64,000 bases of DNA, from assembly GCF_035594765.1 (NCBI RefSeq), contig NC_085843.1, positions 242,645,971 through 242,709,970 on the forward strand. The letters run 5' to 3'. Under the pieces are notes generated by a model. The model was not told the origin of the DNA and did no database searches. It saw nothing but the letters and a program-made list of their open reading frames with translations. Shown here in pieces: positions 18,552 to 34,724 of this stretch (position 1 is the stretch's first letter; each line of letters opens with the position of its first letter). Both the position numbers and the translations under genes were made by a program. The DNA comes from Anolis carolinensis (Eukaryota).

Positions 18552-18707
18552 TCACAGTGAGCCTTGAACAAAGAAGAAATGTCCATGTTTGCATAAAGAT
18601 GAAAGGATAAGACTGGAACATAATATTGTAGTGATAAGAGTCCCGGTGCATACCAGTGGAAGGTGATGATTGAATCCAACTGGTATCTGCAGTTTCAACT
18701 TCTTAAC
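18552..18707 (-). CDS. PIGX: PIGX last coding exon (TM helix, stop)
   Basis: AG|GTT acceptor. VKKLKLQIPVGFNHHLPLVCTGTLITTILCSSLILSSLCKHGHFFFVQGSL* matches the PIGX C-terminus (LQVPVG..LVCSVTLLITILCS..KYGHF). Confidence 0.92.
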   Translation of the reverse strand, partial: VKKLKLQIPVGFNHHLPLVCTGTLITTILCSSLILSSLCKHGHFFFVQGSL

Positions 18708-19068
18708 CTACAATAAAAGAGTTAAAGTTAAAACCTAAATAAAATTCCTTTGTTCAAAACTTATTTGTCAGAAAAATGGCAAATCAGTATATTAAATATA
18801 TGTTGGACATTATACATTTTGGCTTAACAGATTTTTTTAGCATATACCATTTTATAAGACCCTTTATTTCAATCTTCTTTACAATATAATTCTGTATGTG
18901 TCTACTAATTGCCTTTTTATCCGGGGAAGAGTCCTACCATGTTTGTAAAATAATGTTCTTGATTCAATTGGTACTGGTACTGCTACTAGAACAGAATAGA
19001 CATCTCAGAGTCTTTAGAGACATATTAATTTTAAGAATAAGTAAGAAAAGAAAGAAACGTGAACATAC

Positions 19069-19169
19069 AGTTTTGAGCTTCAAACTATCCCAGTAGCACA
19101 TATTAATACTCTTCTGGGTACAGGGGACTTCTATTTCAGTTTCTTTCAAGCAATCCACTGAGAGAAAAG
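19069..19169 (-). CDS. PIGX: PIGX coding exon 5
   Basis: AG/GT flanks, 101 nt, phase consistent. (S)FLSVDCLKETEIEVPCTQKSINMCYWDSLKLKT. Confidence 0.9.
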
Positions 19170-19202
19170 CTACAAAGAGAAAAAATACATTATGAAATAA
19201 AA

Positions 19203-20289
19203 TGTCATAGACAGAACGCCACCAAATAGAGTAAAACTCAGTTTATTGAGGTTACAAAACTGAAAATGCCCGTAGGAAACAAAGGATTAGGCAAACACTT
19301 GACTTCAGTGTGAAAAGTAACAAAAACAGCTCCGTTTGAACTAAAACGGTTCAAAAAGGATAAACCGGATTTAAACAGGAGTTTAATCCGGATTAAATCA
19401 AAAGTGCTTACTTCAGCCTGCAAATTTAGCAAACAAAAGAGGATTAACAGAGGTCAGAATGAACACAATAAACTGGCAGCAGATTCCTCTCTGCTACTCA
19501 AAAGCTACAGATGAGTAAATCAGGCTGTTTACTCCTCCGTGCAATGAGCGAAATCCGGGTCCAGGCACATCAATCAGGGTAACGGCAGTCAGCAGGGTCT
19601 CAATCCTGGTTGAAAGCCAAGTGCAGACGTCTAGAATTCCACAAGTCCCACCGATAGCCACAGAAGGGATAATCCGGGGTCGAAGTCAGTCAGTCCAGCG
19701 TCAATCCAGAGTAGGTAATTAATGTCCGTCAAAAAGACGACGGAGGTCCAAGGTATCCAGCAACGAATCACACCCGTCTTCAGGAAGTTCCCCAACAAGA
19801 GCCCAAGCGTTCGTCCAGATTACCTTGCCCAACGCAATTAGACATTGATCCTAAACCCCATTTTATCCCAGTTCAAACTCATTATCGCTGTCAGCTGCCA
19901 TCCTAATCCCAGGTGCCTCATCATCATCATCCTCATCAGAGCTAAAACACCTTTGACTACGCCCCACAGCATCCCCAGCTGTGGATCCCGCTCCATCCCT
20001 CCAGCCCGTCCATGGGTCTGATCCTGCAACCCGCCAATCGCCCCCCAAGCTTTCATTGCCGGTGACACCCAAATCCTCCCTCACACGAGTCCACTCCATG
20101 TCATCCTCCTCCGAGCTGACCATTTCTTCCTCCATTCCCTCGGTAAAACCCTCAAAAGAATCCTCATCTGTTGGTTCTGCAAATAAGTCCCGGAGCCGTT
20201 TCCTTTCACACTCCTCAAAAGAGTCTGACTCTCGAGGAGTCTTACGACCCCGTCTCCTAGTACCGGAGCCAGAAGGCTCAACCATAACA
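19203..20289 (-). mobile_element. Solo LTR (Gypsy/BEL-type by 5-bp TSD) in a PIGX intron, containing a 140-aa ORF
   Basis: Minus-strand ends TGTTATGG...CTATGACA. 5-bp TSD TAAAA at 19198-19202 and 20290-20294. AATAAA at 19247-19242, TATA-like GATAAAA at ~19867-19861. Confidence 0.8.
19863..20285 (-). CDS. Putative LTR(U3)-encoded acidic protein with an NLS-like patch and FxGF motif
   Basis: Intact 140-aa ORF whose ATG is nt 5 of the LTR. Contains RRRGRKTPR, RLRDLFAEPTDEDSFEGF and acidic Ser tracts. Expression is not shown. Confidence 0.45.
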   Translation of the reverse strand: MVEPSGSGTRRRGRKTPRESDSFEECERKRLRDLFAEPTDEDSFEGFTEGMEEEMVSSEEDDMEWTRVREDLGVTGNESLGGDWRVAGSDPWTGWRDGAGSTAGDAVGRSQRCFSSDEDDDDEAPGIRMAADSDNEFELG

Positions 20290-20316
20290 TAAAATGCATA
20301 TTAAGGAAAGATATTA

Positions 20317-20819: not shown

Positions 20820-21033
20820 ATTTCTGGCAATTGATCAATATTTCTGGACTCTTCAGTACAATAAAGATTCTTCCATCATCCTTTGTTGGCCGGTGATATC
20901 GACAATGCAATGGTAATAATGCTTTAAAGCAGGATTGGCATTCAGGATCAGGTTTCATGTAAACAAGAACAGAAATATCTGTAGCCAAGTATTCAGGAAC
21001 TTCCAAATCTATATTATCTGAAATTACTAAAGC
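20820..21033 (-). CDS. PIGX: PIGX coding exon 4
   Basis: CAG|GCT acceptor and T|GTGAGA donor, 214 nt. ALVISDNIDLEVPEYLA...LPLHCRYHRP..SPEILINCQK contains the PIG-X HxRYHxP motif. Confidence 0.93.
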
Positions 21034-29256: not shown

Positions 29257-29400
29257 TTACAACAAAGGAATGAAGTCATCTCCATTGACTTCCTATACTG
29301 TTAGATTTGCTTTAAAATTACTTTTAAATGTATAATTTCCAAATAGTCTTTAAATATTTATGTTTTTTGTTATCTGGTTTATTTTTCTCCTTTGATGCAG

Positions 29401-29762
29401 ATTGCAGCAGGGCAGCAGAACAGCTAAAGAATAACCCTAGACATAAAGCTTATTTGAATGGAGTTTCACTGGAACAGCTACAAAAGTTACACCGTTTACT
29501 GAGATGCCACTTGGAGGGACAAAGTCTAACTCAGAGTTTGGAGCAAATTAAGCGGGAAGAAACACTTGATCCGGAAGAAGACTTGAACAAACTGGATGAC
29601 AAGGAGCTAGCCAAGAGGAAAAAAATCATGGATGAGTTGTTTGAAAAGAACAGGAAAAAGAAAGATGATCCTGATTTCATCTATGATGTCGAGGTGGCAT
29701 TCCCACAGGATGAGGAGCTTGAATCCTGTGAGTGGGACACAAAGTCAGATGAGGAGTTTTGA
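29401..29762 (+). CDS. CEP19: CEP19 coding exon 2
   Basis: TGCAG|AT acceptor. (D)[18 protein letters not shown]...[48 protein letters not shown]. Total 163 aa. Confidence 0.96.
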
Positions 29763-32336: not shown

Positions 32337-34590
32337 CAACAACAACAACAACAACAACAATTTATTGATTAGCCAGTTGGCCTTATCAAAGACAGACAAT
32401 ACAAAAACAACATACAACATACATCTGGTTCACTTAAAATAAAATACAGATATACAGGTGTCTGCCTGCATGGTGCCATTGTACTTTAGCTAAAGATCTA
32501 TGCATCAACTATCCTCATCTCCCCTGCACTGCACCCCAATCTGATCTATGTACTCTGATCTCCTTTTAGCAGCTTTAAACAAATACAGGGCCACTTTTGT
32601 TGTCAGAGTGGGGTTATAACCGGCTAACAAAAATGAAGTTTTGACCTCAATAGACCAGCTTGTTTTATTACCAATAAAAGGCCATAAGTATTGTTTCCTT
32701 TCTTTTTTATATAGGTTACAGTTGTGCAAAATGTGGTTCAAATTTTCAACTTCAGGGCTGCCGCAAATACATAATCTTTCTTCATACGGGATATGATTGA
32801 ATCTGCCGTGTCTCTCCATGGACTCCATTTGTTCAAATCTTGCCCTAGTGAAAGTGATTCTTAGGTGTCTTGGGATATCTGCTTTTAGGTACAGTGCCCT
32901 CTGGAAATTATGTTTAAAGTGTCCTAACCACTTCAGAGATCCTGTATTAGACAGGGTGTCTATGTCTTTTTGGGCTTCAATATCTAGGATTCTTTGGATT
33001 ACTGTCCTTTTTTCGGCATCCCTATTCTGGTCTGATGAAGTAAATTGTAATCCACAGGAGCAAAGAAGCCTTGATAGTTGTTCTGCCCAGGAGTCTTGGT
33101 TAAAACCATTAGATTGTTCTAAGAAGCACAATTTTGGCAGTCTGTTATTTTCAAGATTTTTTCTTTTAGCCCAATAGTTAAAGGCCCTGATTTTGGCGAG
33201 ACCTTCAATAGAATGTATTTCTAACTCTGCTCTAACTGCGGCAGCGGTGGTCTTAGCGTCAACGCCAAGTATCTGTCTTAAAAATTTTGATTGCGTTTGT
33301 TCTAGTATTGGTAGTTTGCTTAGGCCCCAGATTTCTGTTCCATATAGTATCATGGGGAGGATTTTTGCTTTATAAACTTTGATTATTGGAGTTAAAGAGC
33401 CAGGATATCTATGGGTTAGCAGTCTTGCCAGTGTGTTGGAGCGTGCCCTAGTTTTGATCGCACAAGATTGAGAATGTGCCAACCAAGAGCCAGTCTCTGA
33501 ATATACTAAGCCTAGATATGTAAAAGAGCTAACCTGTTCTATATGCTCTGCATCTAGAGCCCATTTGTGTCTAGATGGGCGCTTTCCGAAAACCATAATT
33601 TTTGACTTGGTTTTGTTTATTGTCAGCTCATTTTTGTGGGCGTAGATGTTAAGTTTGATTAGTAATCTTCGTAAACCTATTTGGGTATTAGACATAAGAA
33701 CCATGTCGTCCGCATATAGAAGAGTATTTATGTGTCTGTTACCAATTATAGGCATATGAACCTCGGAGCTGCTGAGGTGGTCTGGCAGGTCATTGATATA
33801 AAGGTTGAAAAGTAAAGGGGCTAATAAACAGCCTTGTCTTACACCTTTGCAGGAGTCAATTCTCTTTGTCAAGGCACCACTGGTTCCTGTCCTAACCTGG
33901 ATATGGTTGTTGGAATATAAACTTTTGATCAGGAGTAGTAATCTACGGTCTATTCCATGTACTGTTAGTTTTTGACAGAGGAGCTCTCTGTTGATGCTGT
34001 CAAAGGCTGCATTTAGATCAATGAAAGCAACATAAAGTCTACCCTTTCTTTTTAGATGTTTATATATTAGGTGGTTTAGGATAAAACAGTTATCCATGGT
34101 GGATCTACCTGATCTGAAGCCGGCTTGTTCTTCTGATAGAATTTTATTTGCATATTCCCAAAGCTCTAATTTAGAAAGAAGTACTTTAGAGTAGATTTTG
34201 GCCACTATATCTATTAGACTGATAGGTCTGTAGTTTTTTGGATCTTTTTTGCACCCTTTTTTGTAAATAGGGATAATTATTGCCAATTTCCAACTGGTAG
34301 GAATGTTGGCAGTGTTATTTATGTGATTACATAGACCTGCTATTAGGGGGGCCCACCATTCAGGGTTGGATTTAAATAACTCTGGTGGTAAAAAGTCTTC
34401 TCCAGGAGCTTTATTGTTGTTAAGGCTTTCAATTATACTCTTTATTTCCTGTACGGTAATCGGGGGCCAGTCTGGCAGATTTTCGGGGCTGTCTATACTA
34501 GGAGCAAGATATTTCTTTGGAAGGGGCGGGGGGCAAACATTTGAGAAAAATAGATCTCCCAATTTGCTGCAGAAATAGGGGCATCGAATG
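32337..34590 (-). mobile_element. RTE-X-like non-LTR retrotransposon, 5'-truncated, with an intact RT ORF (32505-34562)
   Basis: Uninterrupted 685-aa frame: KAPGED, NYRPISL, EEQAGFR, AFIDLNAAFDS, GVRQGCLLAPLLF, LLYADD, and C-terminal ERLCICG..EVENLNHILHNC. 3' end GGCTAATCAATAAA(TTG)n. Clade assignment is by eye. Confidence 0.85.
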
Positions 34591-34724
34591 CATATTTCCT
34601 TTCTTTGACAAATTTGTCATGAGCCTTCAATTTCTAAGCTATATTGACTAAGACAATCCTATCATCAGGCTTTCTTGACAAGATTTGTTCCATGCAGGTT
34701 TGCCACTGCCTTCCATTGAGGCTG

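Follow-up and report, generated by a model that had tools for sequence, protein, structure and literature searches.

The window, a 64,000-nucleotide stretch of Anolis carolinensis DNA to which all unlabelled coordinates refer, contains a solo LTR of a Ty3/gypsy element in sense orientation within an intron of PIGX, the host gene being recognized by its Pfam PIG-X domain (Table 1). The original prediction of a 1087-bp TG..CA solo LTR with a 5-bp target-site duplication was confirmed, TTTTA being found at both sides; the R region is ~88 bp shorter than in relatives such as L077 (1175 bp). The PIGX exons flanking the LTR were joined in one RNA-like contig, whose donor animal may be without the insertion, and the intron at 18678-19096 was covered by two RNA-like contigs; none of the sequencing runs concerned is recorded as RNA, and contigs of this kind cannot yield a transcript start site or level. 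The sense-oriented LTR, with its AATAAA and 33 nt from the acceptor, could alter PIGX splicing or terminate the transcript early (19170-19247). Also present in the window are a CEP19 coding exon (29328-29762, + strand), from a gene on the strand opposite to PIGX, and a 703-aa LINE-type reverse transcriptase frame (32505-34616, - strand).

Table 1. Features of the solo LTR and the adjoining PIGX exons, in window coordinates.
Feature	Position	Strand	Remarks
Solo LTR of Ty3/gypsy element, Tf1/sushi-type self-priming	19203..20289	-	1087 bp, TGTT..GACA
5' target-site duplication TTTTA	20290..20294	-	
3' target-site duplication TTTTA	19198..19202	-	
140-codon frame, LTR-encoded C-terminal tail of Pol/integrase	19863..20285	-	Fills U3; continues the Pol frame in the 3' LTR of full-length elements
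Basic patch RRRGRKTPR	20232..20258	-	Putatively NLS-like; codons 1-20 without measurable purifying selection
Predicted helix at the TIM helix position, with DLF at its end	20181..20219	-	Low-confidence model
Acidic linker AEPTDEDS	20157..20180	-	8 residues; CK2-type site T39
FxGF (FEGF)	20145..20156	-	
WTRVREDL..DW	20034..20093	-	Aligns with third motif of family E/F; without FxGF in the window
TATA-like GATAAAA	19861..19867	-	32 nt upstream of putative transcript start
GCGTTGGGCAA	19825..19835	-	11-nt complement of primer-binding site of full-length copies; marks putative start of R
AATAAA polyadenylation-signal-like site	19242..19247	-	Close to LTR end
PIGX exon, upstream of LTR-bearing intron	20820..21033	-	
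Next PIGX exon	19070..19169	-	Acceptor 33 nt past LTR end

As had been claimed, the LTR carries an intact 140-aa open reading frame, running from an ATG at LTR nucleotide 5 to a TAA within GATAAAA. The overlap of stop codon and TATA-like box holds for the sub-lineage of the window's copy (140 aa), but most copies stop at 137 aa. The sequence elements that had been singled out, RRRGRKTPR, RLRDLFAEPTDEDSFEGF and the acidic tracts SSEEDD and SSDEDDDDE, were all found, although the second spans 20198-20145, one codon off the predicted start at 20195. The element is abundant: searches of the lizard's own genome returned 2738 DNA candidates (40 scored) and 10,628 protein candidates (150 scored). Of 38 copies selected for their DNA similarity, 28 were solo LTRs flanked by perfect 5-bp duplications, eight were ends of longer elements and two had imperfect duplications; the frame, for which retention in related copies had been proposed as a check, was intact in 35 of these 38. 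Three NCBI gene models (P0133, P0283 and P0296) annotate the tail as uncharacterized lizard proteins, alone with an SH3 module or fused to another repeat. The closest named proteins were those of A. carolinensis; protein searches, in which LTR frames are poorly covered, found no relatives of the tail itself outside this species, and no useful match was obtained in Pfam, PDB sequences or the protein atlas, blanks that carry no weight.

Rather than being a gene of its own, the frame is the conserved C-terminal end of the integrase of a gypsy element. Full-length copies (6.2-6.4 kb) encode Gag (~273-278 aa) and Pol, which overlaps it in another frame, and have no env. Pol shows the domain order PR-RT-RH-IN followed by a GPY/F-SH3 module (Tf2-like), crosses the purine tract (..GDS-V-M..) into the 3' LTR and ends in a 137-aa tail, giving frames of 1212-1214 aa. 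This in-frame fusion of tail to Pol was present in subfamilies A, B and C and in a further family, E, and among the 150 matches listed for the B-like tail, 60 belonged to a 1214-aa frame (counted from the match table). Chromo was found at the corresponding position in 5 of the 9 closest non-lizard matches, as well as in another gypsy family, G, and in P0007; Pfam did not find it in L035 or P0004, where PR, RT, RH, IN and SH3 were recognized, nor in P0005 or the E tail. Among chromodomain-bearing rows, A/B/C/E formed a 100/100 clade in a tree with open deep forks and no non-chromovirus outgroup.

The position of the frame relative to the transcript was deduced from the priming site. Fifteen copies were examined, and in all 14 for which both LTRs were found an 11-nt self-priming match pairs the primer-binding site with LTR nucleotides 454-457 onward, and three B copies (L169-L171) carry a compensatory change at both sides of the pair. 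Self-priming of this kind is described as a trait of Tf1/sushi elements (PMC6317226, available text). The site places the transcript start near LTR nucleotide 455, 32 nt past the TATA-like box; the frame would therefore lie wholly in U3, upstream of the start, in agreement with the claim that it fills U3.

The tail is under protein-level purifying selection between subfamilies. Subfamilies A (the window's), B and C were compared as natural copies, with LTR pairs 98.5-99.7% identical in A and 99.9-100% in B. Tail dN/dS was 0.26 for A/B (95% CI 0.15-0.44), 0.18 for A/C and 0.16 for C/B, and not the value near 1 against which related LTRs were to be checked. Residues 21-66, the motif region, gave 0.03-0.10 (dS 0.75-1.75, dN 0.05-0.11), while dN/dS of residues 1-20 was not below 1; constraint is stronger in the integrase core (0.02-0.05) than in the tail. 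Read in the five other frames, the same DNA gave 1.2-2.2 in four and 0.43 in one antisense frame. There were no indels between subfamilies in the tail, compared with 34-55 elsewhere in the LTR. For subfamily A, single-copy variants comprised 22 silent, 40 replacement and 3 stop changes (omega ~0.6-0.7), and shared variants gave ~0.3, a comparison biased toward conservation because the copies were chosen by similarity. Near-neutral private variants together with constrained shared ones fit selection during transposition followed by decay. An antisense frame of 111 aa (19957-20292, + strand) is open here and in several A copies, and is probably a shadow of the tail's acidic codons.

We next consider the motif itself, using the definition given in the available text of two reviews (PMC9987994 and PMC8022399). 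In a TIM, a helix is followed by 8-16 residues of acidic linker and, optionally, by FxGF, the last of which marks LEDGF/HRP2 partners, and several host proteins contain two or three such motifs (PMC9987994); the FxGF consensus is D/ExExFxGF (PMC8022399). The original prediction of a TIM/IBM-like motif in the frame was borne out, the helix-acidic-FxGF order being conserved across subfamilies and lying in the selected region. FxGF was present in all subfamilies, and the full consensus was exact in B and in motif 2 of family E; A and C fit it only partly, since they have D instead of E two residues before FxGF. Twelve motif instances from six copies kept the helix pattern [ILM][RQ][DE][ILV][FLC..] and an invariant proline at -6, and FxGF, by which they had been selected, is invariant among them by construction. 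When SH3 and the tail were modelled as a single chain, the low-confidence result (mean pLDDT 38.5) had a helix at tail residues 23-34 (pLDDT ~58). In 200,000 shuffles of the tail, the helix-like/acidic/FxGF pattern arose at a frequency of 0.001, FxGF alone at 0.025 and two motifs never (0/200,000).

Host proteins of the lizard offer a direct comparison. An exon of a CDCA7L-like gene, DVFNAPSDDEDFFGF, and the B tail, DIFAAPSDEESFEGF, are identical at 10 of 15 residues with the same 8-residue spacing, which also occurs in the motif of a CDCA7-like exon; both genes are provisionally named, with Pfam zf-4CXXC_R1 as a guide. There was no DNA sign of motif capture from CDCA7L (26 of 45 nucleotides and 5 of 15 third positions identical). 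The lizard PSIP1 IBD is present. An intronless, broken PSIP1/LEDGF copy was also seen (L164, G000:C2:143718346-143718648) and is probably a processed pseudogene.

Family E, met by chance beside the CDCA7L-like gene, is diverged and older, and has a sister family, F, at ~70% identity. Its LTR (~1350 bp) starts TGTTGTAG and hence lacks a Met at the position homologous to Met1. The E frame of 205 aa contains three helix-acidic-FxGF motifs and is continuous with the SH3 module, with no chromodomain, in L265 and L266. Motif 2 aligns with the motif of the window and motif 3 with its degenerate WTRVRE segment. In old E copies FxGF was intact in 20/26 (motif 1), 22/29 (motif 2) and 19/25 (motif 3). 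Differences between motif copies fell mostly at third codon positions (for example, 4/2/16 for B versus E motif 2). Between E and F, omega was 0.41-0.43 for the whole tail, significantly below neutral, and 0.36-0.39 for the tail outside the motifs; for the motif windows it was 0.54-0.75, with CIs that span 1, and not significantly below neutral. The E repeats are ~70% alike as DNA, and silent divergence is low in the E/F motif windows. In the CDCA7L-like gene, the first exon that bears the motif has a 5'-truncated E-family LTR (L182:7170-8345) ~40 kb upstream of it, a proximity taken as coincidence because of the copy number. Another E-family LTR (L242:7494-8801) has a 92-bp unit in tandem, amplified more than 10 times; the Pol at L242 was considered as part of the same element, and was rejected because it belongs to family G.

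Other gypsy lineages were examined for comparison. A profile of SH3 plus tail gave 149 distant matches, 134 of which could be anchored; 62 of the anchored integrase tails were chromodomain-like and two had acidic FxGF motifs. In P0144 (two motifs) and P0188 (one), the acidic FxGF stands behind a Pfam chromodomain, and the nearest named relatives are Podarcis proteins. This lineage and A/B/C/E formed separate clades (99/100 and 100/100), and a single clade was not rejected (p-AU 0.18). Family G (L242:139-3921, L268-L282) is a young chromodomain gypsy whose Pol also crosses the purine tract and gains ~85 aa from the element's own LTR; this extension contains DEEEN[L/W]GF, a partial TIM-like motif without the first phenylalanine. 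Family D (L134-L163) is an abundant gypsy with single frames of ~1600 aa, in which the integrase ends right after SH3; it transposes with neither chromodomain nor tail.

Matches to A, B, C and E/F were spread along many contigs. Contigs beyond C6, which make up 15% of the assembly, held 10 of the 150 listed LTR matches for A, 12/150 for C and 10/150 for E/F, together with 22/150 for the tail-less D and 4/90 for the chromodomain family G. There was no small-contig enrichment of A, C or E/F among the listed matches, counted by eye, in a comparison in which solo LTRs are not comparable with internal regions and post-insertion selection confounds; crude as it is, this comparison lends an insertion bias no support. 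Flank GC was 0.38-0.44 for A, B, C and E (51, 6, 5 and 44 flanks), which is uninformative. The location of the window's LTR inside a gene had been offered as support for targeting; a single intronic site is no evidence of it.

In shape the motif resembles those by which host proteins bind the chromatin reader LEDGF, and insertion of the element may accordingly be steered by this factor, as it is in HIV. The PWWP domain of LEDGF and HDGFL2 reads H3K36 methylation. Our main reading, to which we assign a probability of roughly 0.55, is that a U3-encoded integrase tail has been kept in place of a chromodomain, its motif likely binding the TND/IBD of LEDGF/HDGFL2 and tethering the integration complex to transcribed chromatin. 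Binding of LEDGF/HDGFL2 by the motif, possibly strengthened by CK2 phosphorylation, is the part that we regard as probable. That such binding biases insertion to H3K36-methylated gene bodies, or aids transcription of the new copy, has in our estimate slightly less than an even chance. Under this mechanism only the 3' LTR copy of U3 would be present in genomic RNA, and the tail would be made solely as the end of a frameshifted Gag-Pol and would stay on the integrase. The promoter of a 5' or solo LTR would not drive transcription of the frame, and the solo LTR of the window would be a silent relic.

It is also conceivable, though unlikely, that binding of a TND protein by the tail serves not site choice but another step, such as nuclear retention, or recruitment of IWS1/SPT6, TFIIS or HDGFL2 for repair or transcription of the new copy. 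TIMs bind many TNDs (PMC9987994, available text), the three tandem motifs of E/F resemble scaffold proteins such as IWS1, and the lack of small-contig enrichment among the listed A, C and E/F matches is consistent with such a role. The tail, however, occupies the exact place of chromoviral targeting domains, and the two readers of H3K36 are the partners that FxGF suggests. We give still less credence to the view that selection has kept the tail as an acidic, disordered extension for another partner or for the element's own proteins, its likeness to a TIM being incidental. In favour of this view, selection acts on the whole tail rather than the motif alone, and family G likewise reads into its LTR to an extension without the first F; yet the shuffle frequencies, the triplication and retention of the motif, its recurrence in a second lineage and the 10/15 identity with a host motif argue against coincidence.

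The original prediction had the frame expressed from Met1 by solo or 5' LTRs as a stand-alone 140-aa adaptor, like MMTV sag or HIV nef, which are coding sequences inside U3. The ATG at nucleotide 5 in A/B/C, the 35 of 38 intact frames and the inclusion of the tail in the automatic gene model P0133 speak for such a protein, but we consider it very improbable. The likeness to sag and nef ends with coding in U3, as there is no separate frame here: it continues Pol/integrase and lies upstream of the putative transcript start, and its ATG is part of the LTR terminal repeat and is missing in E/F. Private mutations among copies, stops included, are moreover much closer to neutral than shared ones. 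The case shows that an open frame found in a solo LTR may be the end of an integrase and not an accessory gene. Finally, that the repeated segment is a DNA-level U3 enhancer with the protein motif as by-product, which its position in U3, the DNA similarity of the E repeats and the low silent divergence in the E/F motif windows might suggest, is largely refuted by the high silent and low replacement divergence across the motif in A/B/C, the third-position excess between repeats and the absence of indels, and is just as improbable.

A tethering tail would have partial parallels in known systems. Ty5 and MLV bind host chromatin factors (Sir4 and BET, respectively) by a short integrase-tail motif. 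A short motif in the disordered integrase tail of Ty1 similarly binds the host chromatin factor AC40 (PMC7459421 and PMC10050235, available text). Compared with these three, the motif and the proposed partner here are different, the tail is LTR-encoded and there are up to three copies. Host TIM/IBM ligands (JPO2/CDCA7L, IWS1, KMT2A, POGZ, MED1 and ASK) share the 8-residue acidic S/T linker, FxGF and tandem copies, and have a hydrophobic helix like the one predicted here; the motif described here differs in being on the integrase of a mobile element. Lentiviral integrase engages LEDGF by its folded core, not by a copy of a cellular linear motif. The host factor and outcome proposed here are those of lentiviral integrase-LEDGF tethering, and the available text of PMC9987994 names no hijackers of the LEDGF/HRP2 domain other than lentiviral integrases; in contrast to lentiviruses, the present element is a gypsy without env and with a host-type linear motif.

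The layout itself is that of plant CRM group A, in which the polyprotein extends into the 3' LTR, with a CR motif at its end (PMC3059260), the tail motif here replacing the chromodomain. CRM group A elements are from plants rather than vertebrates and are centromeric, whereas the copies here are spread along chromosomes and not visibly clustered; the partner of CR is unidentified in the available text of PMC3059260, whereas the tail motif resembles a known host ligand. No report of a TIM/IBM-like motif on a retrotransposon integrase was found in the literature searched, from which subscription papers were mostly missing and which included PMC11640333, PMC9976928 and PMC7386202 in their accessible parts; a word search of the accessible text of the latter two returned no mention of LEDGF or the motif. 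Host-binding motifs in integrase tails and Pol reading into the 3' LTR are already known, and what appears new is a host-type LEDGF-ligand-like motif on a gypsy integrase. An IBM in Passer/pogo transposases, considered as a further parallel, thus gained no support from these two papers.

More broadly, we tentatively propose that reptile gypsy integrase tails copied the host LEDGF/HDGFL2 motif, possibly twice and in up to three tandem copies, with one lineage having an LTR-encoded version instead of the chromodomain; targeting of the heterochromatin-reader type would have given way to a gene-body tether of the lentivirus type with a different interface. If true, a gypsy integrase with the host's own ligand motif would represent convergent use of the LEDGF tether by a different route, and would provide a named partner for the 'targeting domain' position whose plant counterpart lacked one. 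The near-identity of its LTR pairs marks subfamily B as young, so that population insertion data are usable for site bias, and family D constitutes a natural control for insertion-site comparison.
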